From contig JAAEPZ010000538.1 of the NCBI GenBank assembly GCA_024231955.1, positions 435,340-499,339 of the forward strand: DNA of 64,000 nt, given 5' to 3'. Each line of letters starts with the position of its first letter. Within the stretch, counting starts at the first letter, position 1. The DNA comes from a bacterium. GTDB lineage: Bacteria > Krumholzibacteriota > Krumholzibacteriia > JACNKJ01. The notes under the pieces are model-generated. The model worked only from the letters and a program-made list of their open reading frames with translations, was not told the origin of the DNA and did no database searches. A program made the translations under genes and the position numbers. This document shows, in pieces, positions 5,392 to 64,000 of this stretch.

Positions 5392-6786
5392 ATGCATATC
5401 CGACAGAAATGGACATGTCTAGTGCTGATTCTGTTCATCCTGGTGATGTCCTGCATAAAGAGCGATCCGCCCACGGCGGTCACCCCCGTCGGCATCATCA
5501 CGGCATTCGCTTTCCTCAAGGCCTACAATCCGGAATTGCCTTTCGATGTGGTCGGACGCATCGACCAGGATACGGGGATCATCTACGCGGATCTGTCCAA
5601 CATGCCCCCCTGCCACAACTCGACGCTGGTCGCAACCTTCACCGCCTCGGTGGAGCGGGTCGAGAGCGGGGGGAAGATCGTAACCAGCGGCGAGACCCCC
5701 CTCCGTTATCTCCCCTGGCGCACGTTGATCGCCGTGGCCGGAGACAGGAGCGTCGAGTACGAGGTGCGTTTGCGGCAGCGTCTCGACGCCTATGTCTGCA
5801 ACCTCGACGTCAACAGGGTCTGGCTCAATACGATGCAGGGGCTGTTCGCGACGACATCGCAGGAGTTGGGGGATGTCCAGACTTTCAGCGCGGCCCTCGG
5901 TGATTTCGACGGGGACGGCGACCTTGATGTCCTGGCCAACAACTACACCGACGTCAAGAGTGTGTGGTTCAACAACGGGCAGGGCCTGTTCACCGACAGC
6001 GGCCAGAGTCTGGCCTCCTCAAACGGATACGATATAGCCCTCGGCGATCTCGATGACGATGGCGACCTGGATGCCTTCATCGCCAATCTGGAGAACTACG
6101 CCGACAACGTTCTGCTCAACGACGGCACCGGTCACTTCTCCGATAGCGGTCAAAATCTCGGCGTCACCTCCTCCTACGGTGTCGCCCTGGGTGATCTGGA
6201 TGATGACGGCGATCTCGACGCTTTCATCACCAACATGGATGTGGGCGATCTGGTGTGGCTCAACGACGGTCATGGCAATTTCACCGACAGCGGTCAGATT
6301 CTGGGCTTCTCAACCTCGTTCAAATCCGATCTGGGGGATCTGGACAATGATGGTGATCTCGACGCCTTCATCTGCGGCGAGAACGGTTGCACCGTCTGGC
6401 TGAACAGCGGGTCGGCCACTTTCAGCGATACGGGGCAAAGTCTGGGGGAGCGCGGCATCATGGATGTCGAACTCGCCGACCTCGACGGCGATGGTGATCT
6501 GGACGCCTTTTCCGTGCACAACGGAGAGGCGGCCCTGATCTGGCTGAATGACGGCTCCGGCGTCTTTACCGACAGCGGCCAGGCGCTGGGCGCATCCTGG
6601 TCGCTGGGAGTTGCTCTGGGAGATCTGGATATAGACGGCGACATCGACGCTTTCGTGGCCAACGGGGTCAATCAGTCGAACGTCGTCTGGCTCAACGACG
6701 GCAATGGTCTCTTCCAGGCCACCAGCCAGAATATCGGCGACAGCTCCTCCACCTCTGTCCTGCTGGGGGGGTTGATCGGTTACTGA
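5392..6786 (+). CDS. FG-GAP/VCBS-repeat lipoprotein (calcium-binding beta-propeller-like)
   Basis: Start ATG 5392 with AAAGGAGAA RBS. Signal peptide plus lipobox-like LVMSC. Seven repeats of the type ALGDLDDDGDLDAF...N(D)G.G.F.DSGQ.LG (FG-GAP / DxDxDG Ca-binding). Confidence 0.7.
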   Translation: MHIRQKWTCLVLILFILVMSCIKSDPPTAVTPVGIITAFAFLKAYNPELPFDVVGRIDQDTGIIYADLSNMPPCHNSTLVATFTASVERVESGGKIVTSGETPLRYLPWRTLIAVAGDRSVEYEVRLRQRLDAYVCNLDVNRVWLNTMQGLFATTSQELGDVQTFSAALGDFDGDGDLDVLANNYTDVKSVWFNNGQGLFTDSGQSLASSNGYDIALGDLDDDGDLDAFIANLENYADNVLLNDGTGHFSDSGQNLGVTSSYGVALGDLDDDGDLDAFITNMDVGDLVWLNDGHGNFTDSGQILGFSTSFKSDLGDLDNDGDLDAFICGENGCTVWLNSGSATFSDTGQSLGERGIMDVELADLDGDGDLDAFSVHNGEAALIWLNDGSGVFTDSGQALGASWSLGVALGDLDIDGDIDAFVANGVNQSNVVWLNDGNGLFQATSQNIGDSSSTSVLLGGLIGY

Positions 6787-48906: not shown

Positions 48907-49368
48907 TCAGTAGAGGGCCTTGAGTGTGCTCCAGACGATGCTCTCCTCGGAACCCTCCGGAATCCCCGTGACCCATCCGCCGCAATCGCTCTGCGCCACG
49001 GTGATGAGAGGGCGGAAGTCGATGACCTCATCGATAGTGAACTGGAACTCGGCGATCGGCACTCCAACCAGATCGAACAAGACCAGCGTGTAGTCTCCCG
49101 CCTCGGGGACGTCGAACTCGAATTCCAGATCGAACCTGCATATACAATACGCTGCCCACTCAGCCAGATCGATCTCGTAGGCGGCGATCGCCGTGCAGAA
49201 GAACTGGACCTCAAGATCAACCTCGGCGGCGCAGTGATATTGGGCGTTACTGTGATGCAGGGTGACTGTGTTGCCGGTTATATCCAGCCAGATCTCATCA
49301 GCCAGTCCGTTGCCTGCACCGAGGAGCGAAAGAGTCAGGATGAGAGTGATCAGGAGCAATCTGTTCAT
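48907..49368 (-). CDS. Small secreted protein (153 aa) ending in the conserved tail ...VWSTLKALY
   Basis: ATG 49366-49368 with GGAGG RBS. SPase-I-type signal peptide MNRLLLITLILTLSLLGAGNGLA. Acidic, beta-strand-patterned body with 5 Cys. The C-terminal octapeptide is shared with three other proteins in this window. Confidence 0.6.
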   Translation of the reverse strand: MNRLLLITLILTLSLLGAGNGLADEIWLDITGNTVTLHHSNAQYHCAAEVDLEVQFFCTAIAAYEIDLAEWAAYCICRFDLEFEFDVPEAGDYTLVLFDLVGVPIAEFQFTIDEVIDFRPLITVAQSDCGGWVTGIPEGSEESIVWSTLKALY

Positions 49369-49508
49369 GGGTTTACCTCCCTTTTCCGTTGAAGTCGAAT
49401 AGGTTGGTTCGCTGATGATACGATATTCAGTTTCATGAATGCAACATCTTGTGTCGGAAATTGGGCCGCCGGTAATTGCGACGGTGGGAGTGCACACTCA
49501 GTTGCCGC

Positions 49509-50310
49509 TTGAATATAATTCAGTACAGGCTCCTGATGCCGCTCCAGGTATTGCTCTCGGTGGGAACGATTATGACGGTGTTCAGGGTCACATTGCATCC
49601 AACCACTTCAAAGGCTTCGTACTCATCATCCACAAGTTGGAGCATACCGGAGTCTTGAGCTTCCTGGACGGCAATACACAGATTGTCAAAGAGATACCCG
49701 CCGAAATCCGTCAGGTCGACCGTGCCCAGCAGCACGACGGGTCCCGGTTGAACCGATGACCAGGCGAGTGTAATACCGGAATTGATATCACCTATAAACA
49801 AGTCGGTTGTCCACGTTACGTTCATTGAGCCGAGAGGAGCTCCCCCCAGGTCTACAGGCATATCGGGAATGCTGAATTCCGCTGCGGTTATGGCATCGAG
49901 ATCGTAATTATCCAGCCACGCTAAAATGAAAAGCTGGCGCGGTTGATTAAGAACAACTTCGACTATATGCGGGGGAGTGCAGTCACCATCGGTAGCAACC
50001 GGAATCATATCACCAGATATCCCGATGAAACTGGTGGATTGGGCCTGCACAGCTCCGCAGGCAGCGAACAGCAGGAGTGCGGCGATAACAAATACTAATT
50101 TTCGCATAGGGAGCTCCTTATGTCGTCAAGATAGTGTCCGGCGGCAGATCTCGTCATGTCGGTCAAAATAGATGATCTCCCGCCAGGTGGTACGGGCGGT
50201 TATATGAAATCCAATTGTATGAGTGTTCATCCATAAGATGAACATTGTAATTATAATTGGGGAAGGTATGAATGTCGAGTGAAATAGAGCTTATTAGGGA
50301 AAGTCCCCAT
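49509..50310. repeat. Copy 1 of a ~0.8-kb duplicated unit (gene A plus ~200 bp of 5' region)
   Basis: Long near-identical stretches shared with 52938..53720. Examples: ttgaatataattcagtacaggctc, ttgtcaaagagatacccgccgaaatccgtcag, and the upstream block catagggagctccttatgtcgtcaagatagtgtccggcggcagatctcgtcatgtcggtcaaaatagatgatctcccg. Confidence 0.6.
49520..50107 (-). CDS. Secreted (possibly lipo-)protein paralog A (195 aa) ending ...TWSGIRSLY
   Basis: AAGGAG RBS. Signal peptide MRKLVFVIAALLLFAACGAVQA. Paralog of 52949..53521 (conserved blocks AEFSIPDMP.DLGGAPLGSM.VTW, QPGPVVLLGTV.LTDFGGYLFDNL, SNTWSGI(K/R)SLY). More AT-rich than its surroundings. Confidence 0.65.
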   Translation of the reverse strand: MRKLVFVIAALLLFAACGAVQAQSTSFIGISGDMIPVATDGDCTPPHIVEVVLNQPRQLFILAWLDNYDLDAITAAEFSIPDMPVDLGGAPLGSMNVTWTTDLFIGDINSGITLAWSSVQPGPVVLLGTVDLTDFGGYLFDNLCIAVQEAQDSGMLQLVDDEYEAFEVVGCNVTLNTVIIVPTESNTWSGIRSLY

Positions 50311-50324
50311 CCAACAGAGGGTTC

Positions 50325-51551
50325 CTACAGCAACTCCGTTATCTCGTCGCTCGTATCGGAGTCGATCCGAATCGGTTTCCCCGCCTCTATCTCAACCGTC
50401 TCCACACCCTCGACGCAGGCATTGATCAGATGTTCCCATTCGAAACGGGACTCGTACTCGTCGCACTTCTCGGGTCTGGGGGCCGTGGCGGGGCTCTTGG
50501 GTACGAAGATCGTGCAGCAATCCTCGTAGGGACGGATCGAGATGTCGTGCGTCCCTATCCGGCGCGCTATATCGATGATCTCGGTCTTGTCCATGCAGGC
50601 GACCGGACGGATCACCGGCATGGTGGTGACGCAGTTGATCGACAGCATGCTCATCGGCGTTTGCGACGCCACCTGGCCGAGGCTTTCGCCGTTGGCCAGA
50701 AGCGCGCAGCCGATCCTCTCCGCGACCCTGGCGGTCACGCGGTACATCATGCGCCGCATCACCGTCATCCCGTAGCTCTCCGGAACCTGTTCGAAGATCG
50801 CCCTCTGCAGATCCGTGAAGGGGACGATGTGCACCGCAAACTTTCCCGAGGGCAGGTAGTGGGCCAGCTTCTCCGCCAGGTCGAACACCTTCTGCCGGGC
50901 GCGCGGCGACGTGTAGGGGGGGGAATCGAAGTGCAGACCGTCCACCGCCAGACCCCGCTTCATCATCAGGTAGCCCGCCACCGGAGAATCGAGCCCGCCC
51001 GAGAGCATCAGCAGCGAGGTGCCGTTGACTCCGATGGGCAGCCCCCCCTGCCCCGGAATCACCCGGGAGACGATGCGGGTTCTCCCCCTCTGGATATGGA
51101 GCGTGATCTTCAGATCGGGATTTTCGAGATCGACCGCGACGGCGGAGTGCTCGGCCACGTAGCGCCCGACGATGTTGGCCACCTCAGGGGAGCTTGGGCG
51201 GAACCCCTTGTCCGACCTCTTGGCGACCACCTTGATGCTCCGGCCACACCCCTCCAGCTCCCGGGCCACCTCGAGCGTAGCGCTCTTGATCGCCTCGATC
51301 TCGCTTGCGCAGGCGGAATAGAACCGATAGCTCTGAATGCCGAAGACGAAATCGAGCTGCTCGATCACCAGCGTGGGATCGGTGTCGTGCAGTTCGATGT
51401 CGATATTGGCGGGGCCCTTGACGAAGGTCAACCGATCCAGCCCCGCGAGTCTCCGTTTCACCGCGTGGAGGATCGAGTTGGTGAAGCGGTGCCTGTTTCT
51501 CCCCTTGAGGAAGGCCTCGCCGAAGGTCGCGATTATGCCGTCGTATTTCAT
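50325..51551 (-). CDS. thiI: tRNA 4-thiouridine(8) synthase / tRNA sulfurtransferase ThiI
   Basis: THUMP domain N-terminus and PP-loop SGGLDSPVAGYL. Length 408 aa. Confidence 0.85.
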   Translation of the reverse strand: MKYDGIIATFGEAFLKGRNRHRFTNSILHAVKRRLAGLDRLTFVKGPANIDIELHDTDPTLVIEQLDFVFGIQSYRFYSACASEIEAIKSATLEVARELEGCGRSIKVVAKRSDKGFRPSSPEVANIVGRYVAEHSAVAVDLENPDLKITLHIQRGRTRIVSRVIPGQGGLPIGVNGTSLLMLSGGLDSPVAGYLMMKRGLAVDGLHFDSPPYTSPRARQKVFDLAEKLAHYLPSGKFAVHIVPFTDLQRAIFEQVPESYGMTVMRRMMYRVTARVAERIGCALLANGESLGQVASQTPMSMLSINCVTTMPVIRPVACMDKTEIIDIARRIGTHDISIRPYEDCCTIFVPKSPATAPRPEKCDEYESRFEWEHLINACVEGVETVEIEAGKPIRIDSDTSDEITELL

Positions 51552-51559
51552 TCCATGTC

Positions 51560-52684
51560 CTATCGGAGCTTGCTGATCGTCGCGTTGAAAATATCCAGGA
51601 AACGTCGAATCTCCTCGCTCGTGGTCCGATGCGAGAGTGAGATCCTGATAGTCTGACCCGCCCGCTCCCGGTCACCGGTGAGGGCCAGGATCGCCGGCGA
51701 GATCATGGCCTTTCTGGATGAGCAGGCGGACACGGTGGCGATGTAAACCTCCTCGGCCGAGAGCCCCTGCAGCATGGTCTCCGGTTTGATGCCGACAAGC
51801 GAGTAGTTCAGGATAAACGGGGAGGCCGACTCCGGCGAGTTGCAGACGATGTCGGGGATGTCGCCAATTCCCGTCCGGAGCATTCGGTTGAGGGTCTTTG
51901 CCCGCTCCAGCTTGCTCTCCAGATCCTCCGTGGCCAGACGCAGCGCTTTGGCGAAGGCCGCCGCCCGCGGCACATCGGCCGTGCCCGAACGCAGTTCGAA
52001 CTCCTGCCCCCCGCCGTGAAGTTGCGGCGAGAGTTGCTGCCGTTCCCGCAGGAGAAGCGCACCACTGCCCTTCAGGCCGAAGAACTTGTGCGCCGACAGG
52101 GAGAGAAGATCCACCGGCGTTTCCGCCAGGGAGAACGGCAGCTTGCCTACGCCCTGCACTCCGTCGACATGGAAGAGGGCCCGGTGATTCGCGAGTCGCC
52201 GGGAGATCTCGCCGATGGGATTGACGGCGCCCGATTCGTTGTTCACGAACATGATGGACACCAGAATCGTGTCGGCGGTCAGGGCTTCCTCCACCTGATC
52301 GGGCGTGACCGCTCCGTCGGGACCGACCGGCAATCGGGTCACCACGAAACCCTGCGCCTCCAGCCACACCATCACCTGCTCCACCGACGGATGCTCGCTG
52401 TTGGTGGTCAGGATATGGTTCCCGCGAGCTTTGTAGAATTCGGGGATCCCCTTCAGGGCCAGGTTGTTGCTCTCGGTGGCGCCGGAGGTGAACAGGGTCC
52501 GGTATCCGCTCCCGCCCAGCACCTCCGCCACCTGGGCGCGAGCTTGCGCCAACAGCTGCTCCGCCCGCTCCCCGGGACGATGCAGCGAGTGCGGATTGGC
52601 CCAGAAGGTCGCGTAGACGTCGTTGAAGGTCTCGAGCACCAGCGGGTCGGGCGGCGTGGTGGCGGCGTTGTCCAGATAGATCAT
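51560..52684 (-). CDS. Cysteine desulfurase (NifS/IscS-like class V aminotransferase)
   Basis: MIYLDNAATTPP start, PLP-lysine motif SLSAHKFFGLKGSGAL, and active-site loop ...SACSS. The alternative upstream start at 52744 adds 20 aa. Its stop lies 8 nt before the thiI start. Confidence 0.8.
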   Translation of the reverse strand: MIYLDNAATTPPDPLVLETFNDVYATFWANPHSLHRPGERAEQLLAQARAQVAEVLGGSGYRTLFTSGATESNNLALKGIPEFYKARGNHILTTNSEHPSVEQVMVWLEAQGFVVTRLPVGPDGAVTPDQVEEALTADTILVSIMFVNNESGAVNPIGEISRRLANHRALFHVDGVQGVGKLPFSLAETPVDLLSLSAHKFFGLKGSGALLLRERQQLSPQLHGGGQEFELRSGTADVPRAAAFAKALRLATEDLESKLERAKTLNRMLRTGIGDIPDIVCNSPESASPFILNYSLVGIKPETMLQGLSAEEVYIATVSACSSRKAMISPAILALTGDRERAGQTIRISLSHRTTSEEIRRFLDIFNATISKLR

Positions 52685-52937
52685 GAGCGGTTCCAGGTTC
52701 GACCTGCTTGAATGAAGGTTCGGTTCGGCGAGCCGGGAAACCATCCGGATCCTGCTCCCCGAATCGATCCCAGTGTAGCACAGCTCAGTAATTGATGACG
52801 CTTGAACTTCACTGCTTTGACCGAATCGTCTTGAGCTATCCGGCCTCTACCAGGGTACCTCCGGGTGATCCGTCCCCTGCTCGATTGGGCACAAGAATGG
52901 GGAACCCATCGGCTCCCCATTTTCAACTCATATAAGT

Positions 52938-53720
52938 TTGAATATAATTCAGTACAGGCTCTTGATGCCGCTCCAGGTATTGCTCTCGGACGGAACGAAT
53001 ATGACGGTGTTCAGGATCACATCGAAGCCGTACGCATCATGGTATTCGTACTCATCATCTACAATGCCAAGGTTACCGGTTATTGGATGGGGCTGGAAGG
53101 TGATAAGCAGATTGTCAAAGAGATACCCGCCGAAATCCGTCAGTTCGACCGTGCCCAGCAGCACGACGGGTCCCGGTTGTGGCGACTGCCAGGCTAGTGA
53201 AATACTGAAACCGGTCTCAACTATTACCAGGTCGGTTGCCCACGTTACGCTCATTGAGCCGAGAGGAGCTCCCCCCAGGTCTTCAGGCATATCGGGAATG
53301 CTGAATTCAGCACCTGTCAAGGCATCGATCGCATACATGTCCAGAATCGCCAAGATATATATCTGACGCGGTTGATTGAGATCAACTTCGACGATATTCG
53401 GGTAGTGCCATTCGGGGATGGGGTCACCAAACATACCGATATAATTCTCGTACTGGGCTTGCACAGCTCCGCAGGAAGCGAACAGCAGCAGTGCAGCGAT
53501 AACAATTACCAGTTTACGCATAGGGAGCTCCTTATGTCGTCAAGATAGTGTCCGGCGGCAGATCTCGTCATGTCGGTCAAAATAGATGATCTCCCGACAG
53601 ATGGTACGGGCGGTTATGCAAAATCCAATTACATGAGTGTTCATCATAAGGTGAACAATATAATTATGACATAGGGGGGTGGGGATGTCGAGTGAAACAA
53701 TGCTTATTGGGACTTGAAAC
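52938..53720. repeat. Copy 2 of the ~0.8-kb duplicated unit (gene B plus ~200 bp of 5' region)
   Basis: See copy 1. The upstream blocks of the two copies match over ~80 consecutive nt with only a few substitutions. Confidence 0.6.
52949..53521 (-). CDS. Secreted (possibly lipo-)protein paralog B (190 aa) ending ...TWSGIKSLY
   Basis: Signal peptide MRKLVIVIAALLLFASCGAVQA, with the same RBS context as paralog A. Second copy of the duplicated unit. Confidence 0.65.
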   Translation of the reverse strand: MRKLVIVIAALLLFASCGAVQAQYENYIGMFGDPIPEWHYPNIVEVDLNQPRQIYILAILDMYAIDALTGAEFSIPDMPEDLGGAPLGSMSVTWATDLVIVETGFSISLAWQSPQPGPVVLLGTVELTDFGGYLFDNLLITFQPHPITGNLGIVDDEYEYHDAYGFDVILNTVIFVPSESNTWSGIKSLY

Positions 53721-54171
53721 CGTCTGGTGGATTCCCTCCATCATACAGAATCTCAGGAGGCCAATTCCGTAGCAATGGAATCGCAGCAACCTGCCGCCGT
53801 CCCGCATACGGCGGCGAGTGTCTCCCGGATCGCAATCATTTGTCTGGGGTGAGATGTACTCGAATGAGTGAAAACGGCTGCCGGCCAATAGCGTAGGTCG
53901 GGCTGGATACAAAAAGAGCGGGGAGCTCCGCGCAACAGCGGATTGAAGGAAAGCAGACCCAGAGCCAAGTGACCCATCCCTGAGGAACCAAAGTCTCGGA
54001 ACCTTTCGATTCCCATCCCATGTCCGGAGTCACTCAGGCCTTCCTCTTACCGCCTGTGTTGTGCTCGACTCCCCGCTTGGAGAGCGGGACCTTCCCGCTT
54101 AAATGATACTCATCTTACCTGCAAGTGGAGTATAGACCCATTTCCGGGACAGTCAATTTTGCCGGCGGGAT

Positions 54172-54198
54172 ATAAAAAACCCCGGTCCGGGACCGGGG
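54172..54198 (-). terminator. Rho-independent terminator of the fad operon (minus strand)
   Basis: On the minus strand CCCCGGTCC-g-GGACCGGGG followed by TTTTTTAT, 40 nt after the acyl-CoA dehydrogenase stop. Confidence 0.6.
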
Positions 54199-54238
54199 TG
54201 CAGTGTCGAATCGAGCGGACGAATAGGGACCTGATCGC

Positions 54239-56047
54239 CTAAAGTGGCCAGATTTCCCTGTCGACAAGCATGTCCGCCACCTTGCGCCGCAGCGCCACCG
54301 TGTTGATCGGCGTATGCTTGACGACTCGCCTCAAACCGGCCAGCGATGTGGTCAGCATGTCACCTTCACAAACGGCCGCCAGTGTTTCGCGCCCTCTGAT
54401 TTCGAGTCTGTTCATCGCGTCGTTGCAGTAGATGCGCGTCAGGTCTCCGGCCATCTCGGCCGCGACGGCATCATCGCGCTGCTGCAGTTTCAACGCACGC
54501 AGCACGGAGGACTCCATGGCGTAGACATCCATGATCATGTCCGAGAGCAGCGCGATCACCTCTTCATGATCCATGGGCGCCTTCAACTTTTCACCCATCT
54601 CCTGGGCGACCGTCCCGAGCGCCAGAAGCACGGTCTTCTTGGCCTGCGCGATGAACTTCTGCTCCGGCGCCAGGAAGCCGTCTCCGGCTTCACCGGTGTC
54701 CAGCGCAGGTGGGCTGGTCAGTTCATCCACAACCTCCTTGGCCCTGGCAAAGATCGGCAACTGGTTCTTGGCGGCCTTCTTGAGGACATCACCCGAGATG
54801 ATGAACCGGTTGATCTCGTTGGTGCCCTCGAAAATGCGGTTGATGCGGCTGTCGCGGTAGAAACGCTCGGCCGGATATTCCTGCGTGTAGCCGTAACCAC
54901 CGTGGATCTGCACACATTCGTCGGCGCAGTAATCCAGGGCTTCCGAGCAGAACACCTTCATCATGGAGCATTCGGTCATGTATTCGCGGATACCCACATC
55001 GATCATCTTGTTGTCGTAGGCCTCATCGCTCTTGTCGAGGCGGCCGATGTTCCGATCGATATAGCCTGCGGTGCGATAGACCATGCTCCTGCCGGCATAC
55101 ACTCTTGCCGCCCCCTCGGCGATCTTGTGTTTGATCATGCCGAAGTCGGTGATGGGACGCTTGAACTGCTGCCGGCCCTTCCCGTATTTCACGGATTCCA
55201 TCACGCACAACTCGGCGGCGCCGACAGCCCCCGCGCCCAGCTTGAAGCGGCCGACGTTGAGAATGTTGAACGCGATGGCCGCGCCGCGGCCGATCCTGCC
55301 CAGCAGATTCTCGACCGGCACCTTGACGTCCTCCATGATCAGCGTGCGGGTCGAGGAGCCCTTGATCCCCAGCTTCTTCTCTTCGGGACCGACGCTGAGT
55401 CCCTCCATATCCTTGTCCATGATGAAGGTGGTGAACTTGTCGCCGTCCACCTGCGCGAAGACGATGAAGATGTCGGCAAAGCCGGCGTTGGTGATGAACA
55501 TCTTCTCGCCGTTGAGCACGTAGTGGGTGCCATCCTCGCTGAGGATCGCCTTGGCTCGAGCCGCGACGGCATCGCTGCCGCTGCCGGCTTCGGTCAATGC
55601 GTAGGCGCCGAGCCATTCACCCATCGCCAGCTTGGGCAGATATTTCTCTTTTTGCTCAGGTGTGCCGAAATACACGATCGGCAACGTGCCGATACCGGTG
55701 TGGGCGCCATGCCCCACCTGGAAAGAGCCGCTTGCGCCCAGCTTCTCGGCGACCAGCATGCCCACCGCTTTGGAGAGAGCCATGCCGCCGTACTGCTCGG
55801 GGACATCGACGGCCAACAGCCCCTGCATGCCCGCCTCTTTGAGGAGGCCGGGCATGACGCCATCCTCCAGAGCCTCCAGGCCGTCCAGCTTCGGGAGTAC
55901 GGAACCCTCGACGAATTTCAGAACCAGGTCGCCGATCATCTTCTCTTCCTGGGAGAACTCTTCGGGGATGAACACCATATCCAGCGGATGCTCCTCCACC
56001 AGGAAGCTGCACCCACGGATCAAATCGCTGTTGTTGCCCTCTGCCAT
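54239..56047 (-). CDS. fadE: Acyl-CoA dehydrogenase (long FadE-type, ~600 aa)
   Basis: ACAD N, middle and C domains (GSGSDAVAARAKA, YGGYGYTQEYPAERFYRDSRINRIFEGTNEI) plus a C-terminal extension. AAGGAAAA RBS. Confidence 0.8.
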   Translation of the reverse strand: MAEGNNSDLIRGCSFLVEEHPLDMVFIPEEFSQEEKMIGDLVLKFVEGSVLPKLDGLEALEDGVMPGLLKEAGMQGLLAVDVPEQYGGMALSKAVGMLVAEKLGASGSFQVGHGAHTGIGTLPIVYFGTPEQKEKYLPKLAMGEWLGAYALTEAGSGSDAVAARAKAILSEDGTHYVLNGEKMFITNAGFADIFIVFAQVDGDKFTTFIMDKDMEGLSVGPEEKKLGIKGSSTRTLIMEDVKVPVENLLGRIGRGAAIAFNILNVGRFKLGAGAVGAAELCVMESVKYGKGRQQFKRPITDFGMIKHKIAEGAARVYAGRSMVYRTAGYIDRNIGRLDKSDEAYDNKMIDVGIREYMTECSMMKVFCSEALDYCADECVQIHGGYGYTQEYPAERFYRDSRINRIFEGTNEINRFIISGDVLKKAAKNQLPIFARAKEVVDELTSPPALDTGEAGDGFLAPEQKFIAQAKKTVLLALGTVAQEMGEKLKAPMDHEEVIALLSDMIMDVYAMESSVLRALKLQQRDDAVAAEMAGDLTRIYCNDAMNRLEIRGRETLAAVCEGDMLTTSLAGLRRVVKHTPINTVALRRKVADMLVDREIWPL

Positions 56048-59877: not shown

Positions 59878-61071
59878 TCAGTACAGACTTTTGATCGTGC
59901 TCCAGTTCTGCTTCTGGGCGGCGATTTCGCCGCAATCGACAATGCGTGAACCCATCAGTTCGCCGCAAGCGCCGGATGCTCTGCATGGGGAATTGCTCTG
60001 CAGGTAGTAATTGCCGCTGCTGTTTGTGCCGCAGAATCGGGGATTGAGGCAGAGATTGCTGTTGGTGTCCTTTTGCGCGACAATTGCCGGAACCCAGTTA
60101 TAGGTGTCCGTCTCGTTGACGTTGCCGAAGATGTCGGTGCAGGTGATCGTCGCCGTTCCCGAACCGAGGTATAGACCCTCAACCAATGTGTTGTAGGCAA
60201 TGATGCATTTCGTGATCTCCACTGCGGACGCACCGGTGATCGACAGACCGGATCCAGGATTGGATGATCCGTTTTCGACGATCGTGCAACTGGTGATCGT
60301 GGGTGACGATGACTCGCATCTGATGCCGCCGCCAAAACCGCCGCCGTAGTTGCCGTAGATAGTCAGCAACGTCATCTGGGCATCGCTGTCGCTGTTGAGG
60401 TAGAACGCCGCGCCGTCACCGGTGGATGTGTTCTCGTTGATGTTGCTGTGATTGAACGTGAACGGGGAGTTGTCGGCATAGATGCCGCCACCGGCGCTGC
60501 TGGTGGTGTTGTTCTCGATGATGCAGTCCTGGATTGACGGTGTCGAACCTTCAATCAGTATGCCGCCGCCATTGCCGGCTCCGGTTGTCGTGTTCGTGGT
60601 GATGGTCGTCAGAGACAGTGTGGGAGTCGAACCGTTGATGCAGGCCATCCCGCCACCACCACCCGCGGATGTGTTGTTGCGAATGATGCAGTTTTCGATG
60701 CTCGGTGAGCTGTTGTCCAGCAGGATGCCGGCACCCTTGTCGGCACCTGTGGTCACACCGCCTTTGATGGTGAAGCCGACGATGCTGGCGGTATTGTCGA
60801 CTGCAGTACAGATGATGGCTCGCCCCGCGCCGTTGGCGTCAATGGTCGCACAGTAAGCGCCGCCCGTGTTGCTGGTCAGCGTGACGCCGGATTTCATCAC
60901 AAGGTCATTTTCCAGGTAGACGCCGCAAGCTACGAGGACAATGTCACCCGAGGTTGCGGCTGCCAGAGCCGCAGCGATTGTGCCGTAGGTACCGGGAACA
61001 TCGAGGGTAGCTGCAGAACCTGCAGTCGCCAGGCAGAGAAGCAATAGAGTCATGATAGCTTTGAAGCGCAT
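59878..61071 (-). CDS. Secreted right-handed parallel beta-helix (PbH1/pectate-lyase-like) repeat protein ending ...NWSTIKSLY
   Basis: GGAGG RBS. Signal peptide MRFKAIMTLLLLCLATAGSAA. Repeated I..C.I.NN.....GGG units (CIIRNNTSAGGGGG, CIIENNTTSSAGGG, CTIVENGSS). C-terminal tail shared with three other proteins. Confidence 0.65.
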   Translation of the reverse strand: MRFKAIMTLLLLCLATAGSAATLDVPGTYGTIAAALAAATSGDIVLVACGVYLENDLVMKSGVTLTSNTGGAYCATIDANGAGRAIICTAVDNTASIVGFTIKGGVTTGADKGAGILLDNSSPSIENCIIRNNTSAGGGGGMACINGSTPTLSLTTITTNTTTGAGNGGGILIEGSTPSIQDCIIENNTTSSAGGGIYADNSPFTFNHSNINENTSTGDGAAFYLNSDSDAQMTLLTIYGNYGGGFGGGIRCESSSPTITSCTIVENGSSNPGSGLSITGASAVEITKCIIAYNTLVEGLYLGSGTATITCTDIFGNVNETDTYNWVPAIVAQKDTNSNLCLNPRFCGTNSSGNYYLQSNSPCRASGACGELMGSRIVDCGEIAAQKQNWSTIKSLY

Positions 61072-63197: not shown

Positions 63198-64000
63198 ATG
63201 AAATTGATCGCAAGCGAACGTCGTCGGTTTACTTTGCTGAACTCGGCATTATTCGGATGTCTCTTTCTCATTCTTCTGGTAGCGGTTTCGCCGGCGCTGG
63301 GCCAGGAAGATGATGATGGCGACGGGCTGACCGATATCGAAGAGGCTGCCGTGGGTACCGATTCACTGGATGTCGATTCCGATGACGACGGTGTTTTCGA
63401 CGGCGATGAGATTCAATGGAGCACCGATACCGATCTTGACGGACTAGTGAATGCCCTGGACCCGGACAGCGATAACGACGGGCTGACCGACGGCGAGGAG
63501 GTCAACGGCCTCGGCACGAATATGGTGCAGAGCGACAGCGATTCCGACGGACTCGACGATTACTTCGAGGTTCATGTCTCGGGTACGAATCCCGCCAGCA
63601 ATGACAGCGATGGCGATGGCATGGACGATGCCGAGGAGATTATCGCAGGCACCGATGGACTCGTGACCAACCCCTGGCTAGCCGACACCGATGGGGACGG
63701 TCTCACGGACTTCGATGAAAGACCCGTAGCTATCGGGACGAACGCGACGCTCTGGGATACCGACGCCGATGGACTCAGCGATTACGAGGAGATCTATACT
63801 GCGGCCGATGGCTATGTCACCAATCCGCTGATCAGCGATAGCGATGCCGACGGCCTGTCCGATGGCCGGGAATTCAATTACGGCACCGATCCCATGTCGG
63901 CCGATACGGACACAGACGGACTCAATGACCTCCAGGAGATCTCCACTTACGGTACTAGTCCTCTGCTTGTCGATACCGATGGCGATGGTCTGGATGACCG
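63198..64000 (+). CDS. Thrombospondin type 3 (TSP3) repeat calcium-binding secreted protein, N-terminal part; runs off the window end
   Basis: Signal peptide LFGCLFLILLVAVSPALG followed by at least 14 D.D.DGL.D..E repeats (DSDDDGVFDGDE, DSDNDGLTDGEE, DTDGDGLTDFDE...). The ORF is open at position 64000. Confidence 0.7.
   Translation, partial: MKLIASERRRFTLLNSALFGCLFLILLVAVSPALGQEDDDGDGLTDIEEAAVGTDSLDVDSDDDGVFDGDEIQWSTDTDLDGLVNALDPDSDNDGLTDGEEVNGLGTNMVQSDSDSDGLDDYFEVHVSGTNPASNDSDGDGMDDAEEIIAGTDGLVTNPWLADTDGDGLTDFDERPVAIGTNATLWDTDADGLSDYEEIYTAADGYVTNPLISDSDADGLSDGREFNYGTDPMSADTDTDGLNDLQEISTYGTSPLLVDTDGDGLDD

Follow-up and report, generated by a model that had tools for sequence, protein, structure and literature searches.

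In a 64-kb stretch of DNA from an uncultured bacterium of the Krumholzibacteriota (64,000 nt of contig JAAEPZ010000538.1; hereafter the window, to which all positions refer), two related genes, A and B, each with its own predicted promoter and leader, flank an operon for a cysteine desulfurase and the tRNA 4-thiouridine synthase ThiI. The explanation that we favour, with little more than even confidence, is that promoter-leader-gene units were duplicated around the thiI operon and that their patchwork similarity comes from recombination between fast-evolving paralogs, not from a conserved operator. Under this explanation, each copy would be a self-contained unit of a sigma-70-type promoter, a leader of ~137 nt and a gene for a secreted cohesin-fold protein, with a leader that would open with a palindrome stem-loop and close with a hairpin over the Shine-Dalgarno (SD) sequence and the AUG. 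The duplication, which is real, would have placed copies on both sides of a resident cysteine desulfurase-thiI operon, and the copies would then have diverged as a mosaic: the protein body would change fast, and the ends (the leader close to the ribosome-binding site (RBS), and the tail with 11 nt beyond it) would be retained or re-homogenised by gene conversion or recombination. Features of A and B, and of two further genes (C and D) that end in a similar C-terminal tail, lie on the minus strand unless stated otherwise; coordinates are given in Table 1.

Mosaic similarity of the two units

Local alignment of the DNA showed that homology between the two units extends from about -193 relative to the ATG to 11 nt beyond the stop codon. 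The encoded proteins are 69% identical, and a first-pass annotation of this region was right to describe two gene-plus-promoter units on either side of thiI and a NifS-like desulfurase. Divergence between the units, for which that annotation had asked an alignment, is not uniform. Identity is 82% upstream of the -35 box, 74% in the promoter segment, 85% from the -10 box to the end of the palindrome and 83% in the distal leader, and rises to 100% (75/75) in the proximal leader (50108-50182). Within the coding sequence it is 71% over codons 1-75 and 83% over codons 76-195, and the stop codon with the following 11 nt is again 100% identical. The longest invariant run covers 80 nt, from -75 to +5, and the coding sequence holds runs of 57-72 nt with one difference each.

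The same annotation had described the 5' regions as much more conserved than the coding parts. This is true overall (88% versus 79%) and locally, at the 80-nt block, but the promoter, palindrome and distal leader, at 74-85%, are conserved no better than codons 76-195, the 3' two-thirds of the gene. The excess of the 5' region over the coding sequence is thus due entirely to the single 80-nt block at the ribosome-binding region, and non-coding DNA appears better conserved than coding DNA mainly because a hypervariable coding interior is set beside one short identical tract at the RBS. A string reported to be common to the regions 3' of both genes is indeed present; it consists mainly of the final codons and the stop codon, and its non-coding share is just the 11 nt.

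Silent sites differ along the gene in the same way. The proportion of synonymous differences (pS, NG86) is ~0.4-0.8 in codons 1-75 (about 0.5) and 0-0.33 in codons 76-195 (about 0.16). Among codons that specify the same amino acid in both copies, 18/46 carry a silent change in the first segment versus 8/79 in the second, a ~4-fold difference (Fisher p=2e-4). As heterogeneity at silent sites is beyond the reach of selection on the protein, it points to mosaic ancestry by gene conversion or recombination, and together with the long identical tracts it indicates that A and B are a gene-conversion or recombination mosaic between paralogs.

The 80-nt block itself calls for a closer reading. In the signal-peptide codons that adjoin it, the amino acids are kept and 39% of the codons have changed silently. 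The probability of finding no difference in 75 nt is ~3e-4 at the lower per-codon rate of silent change and ~3e-6 at the lower NG86 pS of ~0.16. Given this silent change next door, the block is either selected at the nucleotide level or a separate, recent conversion tract. Identity at all 75 positions exceeds what functional RNAs usually show, which favours conversion. The first-pass annotation had named selection or gene conversion as what maintains the shared 5' region; in outline this fits the non-uniform silent divergence and the invariant block, but the operator that it saw as the object of that maintenance is not supported.

As the source is a metagenome-assembled genome and the identical tracts, at no more than 80 nt, are below common k-mer and read lengths, paralogs that were crossed over or collapsed during assembly might in principle have produced them. 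We hold such an artefact to be scarcely credible: a cross-over swaps flanks and creates no identity, each identical tract is bordered on both sides by differences between the copies, whose flanks are unique, and other members of the family show this mosaic behaviour too, in independent JGI and ENA assemblies. A transposon or miniature inverted-repeat transposable element was also considered and rejected, as the ends of the units have neither terminal inverted repeats nor target duplications and there are no further copies.

Promoter and palindrome

Promoters were called in a consensus scan, and the transcription start was predicted from the same scan. Both units have a predicted sigma-70-type promoter, with 11 and 10 of 12 consensus matches in A and B, respectively. 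The hexamers are conserved between the copies, and the spacer segment differs at 8 of 31 alignment columns through substitutions and offsetting indels. That the hexamers are kept and the diverged spacer is still 17 nt long in both copies speaks well, if indirectly, for a genuine promoter. From the predicted start to the ATG, the leader would measure ~137 nt in both copies. At the opposite end of the units, the conserved 11 nt and the stop codon together yield a plus-strand TATAAT with a weak -35 element (49491-49519 and 52920-52948; 10/12 matches in both). This might drive antisense transcription back into A and B or, equally, be just the edge of the duplicated unit.

The inverted repeats reported by the first-pass annotation are found where it had placed them. 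They had been described as overlapping a TATATT/TATAAT-like element; instead, the palindrome (hp1) begins 6 nt downstream of the TATAAT or CATAAT box in both copies, at the predicted transcription start and ~117-137 nt upstream of the ATG. The reading proposed at that stage was of TGTTCA-N8/9-TGAACA as an operator on the transcription start, bound by a dimeric repressor and co-regulating A and B, with the 5' conservation serving to keep this control. We consider this unlikely. An inverted repeat 6 nt past the -10 box is in the classic position for a repressor, at what is in both copies the predicted promoter and start, and its outer 6+6 nt are identical within a segment that is otherwise 14-26% diverged. 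The arm of copy A is also marginally non-random: among random leaders of like size, 2.4% have a perfect 8-bp arm (p=0.024), and 26% have a 6-bp arm like that of copy B. TGTTCA-N4-14-TGAACA occurs at 2 sites in the window with 0.03 expected by chance; as these sites are homologous copies, they count as one independent event. However, the half-sites are 9 nt apart in A and 8 nt apart in B, an inner arm position is broken in B, and the segment that contains the palindrome, at 85% identity, is conserved no better than the 3' two-thirds of the gene. The pattern has no further occurrence in the window, upstream of C or D, or in nine loci of the family, and no regulator or other transcription-factor gene is adjacent to A or B. 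No known motif was matched, and a literature search on TGTTCA/TGAACA operators gave no specific match. C and D, which carry the tail and are of the kind at which the first-pass annotation had suggested looking for the palindrome, have neither the palindrome nor the leader.

A difference of 1 bp in arm spacing would be poorly tolerated by a rigid dimeric operator and easily by the loop of a hairpin. The palindrome is more plausibly a stem-loop at the 5' end of the mRNA than a site for a repressor; it may also be functionless. Its position relative to the predicted start, with calculated free energies of -9.5 (A) and -5.2 kcal/mol (B), would fit a 5'-terminal stem-loop of the ompA type. A role as terminator of thiI was discarded, as the stem is AT-rich, there is no U-run and copy B has no upstream gene to terminate.

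The leader and its counterparts in related loci

Downstream of the palindrome, the leader is predicted to form two further hairpins. The first (hp2) is weaker in B, in which a G-to-U change breaks one pair; the second (hp3), with -5.6 kcal/mol in both copies, would pair the AUG and some of the SD. The AUG is predicted to be paired (probability of being unpaired, 0.01-0.06) and the SD to be half sequestered. The leader of A folds better than shuffled sequences (z=-2.4), unlike that of B (z=-0.54). No pair among the 30 predicted is changed on both sides between the copies. The invariant block also contains a direct repeat, CTATTTTGACCGACATGA and CTATCTTGAC-GACATAA, 37 nt apart, and a near-palindrome, CGACATAAGGAGCTCCCTATGCG, that spans the SD and the ATG.

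A functional 5' untranslated region (UTR) in A and B is plausible. A stronger proposal is that the 75 invariant nucleotides of the leader next to the RBS, with hp2 and the SD/AUG hairpin, act as a new cis-regulatory RNA (riboswitch-like, a thermosensor, or bound by a protein or small RNA) that controls translation under strong purifying selection. We rate this as rather unlikely, even though the block has no difference in 75 nt beside a signal-peptide region with so much silent change, stops at the start codon, is predicted to pair the AUG and half sequester the SD, and in copy A folds better than shuffles, and even though orthologous leaders of the family are clearly constrained in other genomes (below). 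The total identity of the block fits recent conversion at least equally well, the only change in hp2 breaks a pair, the two copies show no covariation, and the fold of copy B does not stand out. Moreover, the leader had no match in Rfam 15 at E<=10, and a scan of the whole window at the gathering threshold gave nothing relevant. In the window and the related loci, blastn at low stringency with the leader as query recovered only the two copies, as did a covariance model of the leader run against the window and 10 loci (148 kb), in which they were the input. A 22-mer of the block had no exact match in the genome-contig or metagenome-contig collections, and blastn of the whole unit against plasmids gave no match.

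The conserved feature could also be a small upstream open reading frame encoding the leader peptide MNTH[T/V]IGF[H/C]ITART[T/I][W/C]REIIYFDRHDEICRRTLS, with its stop 20 nt before the main ATG. Neither copy interrupts this 33-codon frame, and the identical block takes in its last 22 codons. However, its AUG has no Shine-Dalgarno before it, the four codons that differ between the copies all change the amino acid, with no silent difference, and the frame has no homologs, which makes a conserved peptide very improbable.

Several points weigh against the recombination explanation that we favour, with its structured leader. Both stem differences between the copies weaken hairpins of B by breaking pairs, with none compensatory, and the B leader folds no better than shuffles. 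The transcription start is a prediction of the consensus scan only. Two copies in one genome were compared, and from these, selection and recent conversion are inseparable as causes of the 80-nt block. That this block stops within 5 nt of the start codon would be a coincidence under pure conversion and favours constraint. Finally, within the source genome, the searches for palindrome and leader cover the 64-kb window only.

Related loci provide a view of the family beyond this pair. A five-sequence query of the genome-contig collection returned no relatives, and a search of metagenome contigs returned one relative at 39% identity (L009), which was uninformative for the leader. Three other loci (L001, L006 and L008, on Krumholzibacteria-labelled and marine JGI contigs) hold tandem arrays of three to four paralogs beside a C25 peptidase. 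In these arrays, terminator and upstream region are separate for each gene and dissimilar from one paralog to the next. Between L001 and L008, in contrast, orthologous leaders are 75-80% identical, with alignment scores of 69-198, whereas pairs that are shuffled or non-orthologous score at most 19. Protein identity is just 42-70%, and pS, at 0.5-0.65, is close to saturation. Leaders that are kept while the proteins change fast are thus the rule in this family, and one that needs no intragenomic conversion. Upstream of the first array gene (44-110 in L001, 3262-3330 in L008), a sequence that by eye resembles the 3' part of a tRNA gene (…GGTTCGAGCCCTGTTTCGCCCA) is conserved between both loci.

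L001 and L006 are 99.9% identical over 6 kb (4 differences in 6000 nt), and three family paralogs are identical. The fourth family gene (5960-6576 in L001, 5960-6585 in L006) has 59% amino-acid identity and a pS of 0.45, with breakpoints at the leader/signal peptide and at the tail motif in the last 15 codons. Both alleles of this gene were found in a single sample, 3300009128 (L005 and L007). This is a strain-level replacement of an allelic cassette, anchored on the same ends that are conserved in A and B. It is tempting to combine these strands and to see in the 75-nt leader a new cis-acting translational RNA that, with the tail and the 3' flank, is the homology anchor of a cassette exchange diversifying a hitherto undescribed family of cohesin-fold surface proteins in uncultured bacteria; in this full form, we think the proposal distinctly unlikely. 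At A and B, there was no sign of silent cassettes, invertible promoters or site-specific recombinases.

Protein family, neighbourhood and known systems

Scans of A, B and C against Pfam and NCBIfam assigned no family (for A and B, no Pfam match at E<=1), and a word-indexed protein search with A found only A and B themselves (GY835_14795 and GY835_14810). A full HMMER scan gave a family of 124 clusters at 50% identity. Most members are ~190 aa long, with a signal peptide and a C-terminal tail [WF]-x-x-[ILV]-K-x-L-[YF]. Other members, of 700-1750 aa, carry the domain two to four times between HYDIN/ASH Ig-like domains and end in FlgD_ig/Por_Secre_tail. An AlphaFold model (pLDDT 84.8) has the nine-stranded jelly-roll fold of solved cohesins, although neither A nor B matches Pfam Cohesin, and a Pfam scan for dockerins among neighbouring genes in the related loci was negative.

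The tail of A and B reads W-S-G-I-[RK]-S-L-Y. In the form W-S-x-[IL]-[KR]-x-L-Y, it stands at the C-terminus of four otherwise unrelated secreted proteins of the window (C, 48907-48933; A, 49520-49546; B, 52949-52975; D, 59878-59904), and most metagenomic family members of ~190 aa that were inspected end in the same way. The tail has no match among library models and resembles a short sorting or anchoring signal. Cargo of the type IX secretion system (T9SS) has a C-terminal sorting domain of ~80 aa (Por_Secre_tail or FlgD_ig); in A, B and C, the tail is only 8 residues long and matches nothing in Pfam.

The closest relatives of ThiI are 65-68% identical and labelled Lentisphaerae or Verrucomicrobia. 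They keep the desulfurase-thiI pair, with a gap of 8-10 nt and a desulfurase of 374-375 aa, in three different neighbourhoods, none of which has a gene of the A/B family near the pair. In the window, the desulfurase gene is likewise upstream and ends 8 nt before thiI. GC content at third codon positions is 0.56-0.60 in A and B, 0.83-0.86 in the desulfurase gene and thiI, and 0.69-0.82 in other neighbours. The pair is thus compositionally native and A and B are the outliers, which may reflect foreign origin or a different regime of mutation and selection. Tandem arrays are the norm for the family in other loci; composition slightly favours a unit that was copied to either side of an operon already in place over a thiI pair that split such an array.

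Table 1. Coordinates of the duplicated units, their predicted elements and neighbouring genes in the 64-kb window
Feature	Position	Strand	Remarks
Duplicated unit, copy A	49509..50300	-	promoter, leader, coding sequence and 11 nt of 3' flank; local DNA alignment, repeat families D1, D3, D5, D8
Duplicated unit, copy B	52938..53712	-	local DNA alignment, repeat families
Gene A	49520..50107	-	195 aa; signal peptide, cohesin-fold body, C-terminal tail NTWSGIRSLY
Gene B	52949..53521	-	190 aa; tail NTWSGIKSLY
Predicted sigma-70-type promoter of A	50250..50278	-	TCGACA-17-TATAAT; 11/12 matches
Predicted sigma-70-type promoter of B	53663..53691	-	TCGACA-17-CATAAT; 10/12 matches
Palindrome hp1, copy A	50224..50244	-	TGTTCATC-cataa-GATGAACA; 8-bp arms, 5-nt loop (9 bp with G-U pair); RNA free energy -9.5 kcal/mol
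Palindrome hp1, copy B	53638..53657	-	TGTTCA-tcataagg-TGAACA; 6-bp arms, C.A mismatch, loop 1 nt shorter; free energy -5.2 kcal/mol
Predicted leader hairpin hp2	50138..50186	-	CUGGCGGGAGAUC...GAUCUGCCGCCGG; free energy -21.9 in A, -15.7 in B
80-nt invariant block, copy A	50103..50182	-	3' arm and loop of hp2, Shine-Dalgarno AAGGAG, SD/AUG hairpin hp3, direct repeat CTATYTTGAC(C)GACAT
80-nt invariant block, copy B	53517..53596	-	no differences from copy A
Hairpin 3' of gene B	52896..52921	-	AATGGGGAGCCGATGGGTTCCCCATT then CTTGT; perfect 8-bp inverted repeat; read from sequence
thiI, tRNA 4-thiouridine synthase	50325..51551	-	TIGR00342 (E=2.9e-100), PF02568
Cysteine desulfurase, class-V, NifS/IscS-like	51560..52684	-	PF00266, TIGR03402; 374 aa from internal ATG
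Gene C	48907..49368	-	153-aa secreted protein; tail WSTLKALY is the sole likeness to A/B
Gene D	59878..61071	-	397-aa beta-helix protein; same C-terminal tail type

The hairpin 3' of gene B is a likely terminator of that gene. Upstream of B, some 500 nt of the minus strand (53720-54240) have no convincing open reading frame. They contain a promoter-like TTGACT-16-TATACT (54156..54129) and a terminator-like hairpin with a U-run (53929..53915), which delimit a candidate small RNA of ~210 nt (~54122 to 53908, minus strand). The candidate has no Rfam match, and the enclosing 426 nt (53700-54125) fold no better than shuffles (z=-0.86). Elsewhere in the window, repeated units of 26-31 nt at 63315-63997 encode Asp-rich D-x-D-G-style motifs (families D4 and D6), and four repeats of ~115 nt lie at 5967-6657 (family D2); D2, D4 and D6 probably represent repeated protein domains.

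The finding as stated changes little, as ordinary promoter and RBS constraint together with recombination would explain the upstream similarity and no new operator is supported. More useful is that A and B belong to an unannotated secreted family, with no Pfam model, whose arrays lie beside a C25 peptidase in Krumholzibacteria-type genomes; if followed up, this family could reveal a system of surface diversification or protein docking in poorly known lineages.

Among known systems, operators of the LexA, ArsR/SmtB and Rrf2 types that lie over the transcription start share with A and B an inverted repeat with 6-8-bp arms just after the -10 box. In A and B, however, the spacing varies, the repeat does not recur across a regulon, no regulator is adjacent and no described motif matches; the LexA-type site TGTTC-N4-GAACA has a spacing unlike that of this palindrome. 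In long 5' UTRs of the ompA type, a 5'-terminal stem-loop stabilises the mRNA. The A and B leaders resemble these in a length of ~135 nt before a gene of the envelope-protein type, with a hairpin near the predicted 5' end, a second hairpin and the RBS; they differ in having no sequence similarity, a weak 5' hairpin in B and a start that is only predicted. Compared with the cohesins of cellulosomal and non-cellulosomal scaffoldins, the proteins are only 5-15% identical, match no Pfam Cohesin, have no dockerin partner found and stand in a context of T9SS-type surface proteins rather than cellulosomes.

The 'upstream homology box' genes of Borrelia and the vsp/vlp genes of Mycoplasma are paralogous surface or lipoprotein genes in which a conserved 5' expression region precedes a variable body. 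A and B are like them as multicopy surface genes with a steady promoter, leader and signal region, a fast-changing mature part and recombination. At the other end of the gene, A and B have kept the C-terminal tail alike as well. They are unlike the Borrelia and Mycoplasma genes in numbering just two copies, each with an intact promoter, and in belonging to an unrelated protein family and an uncultured lineage.

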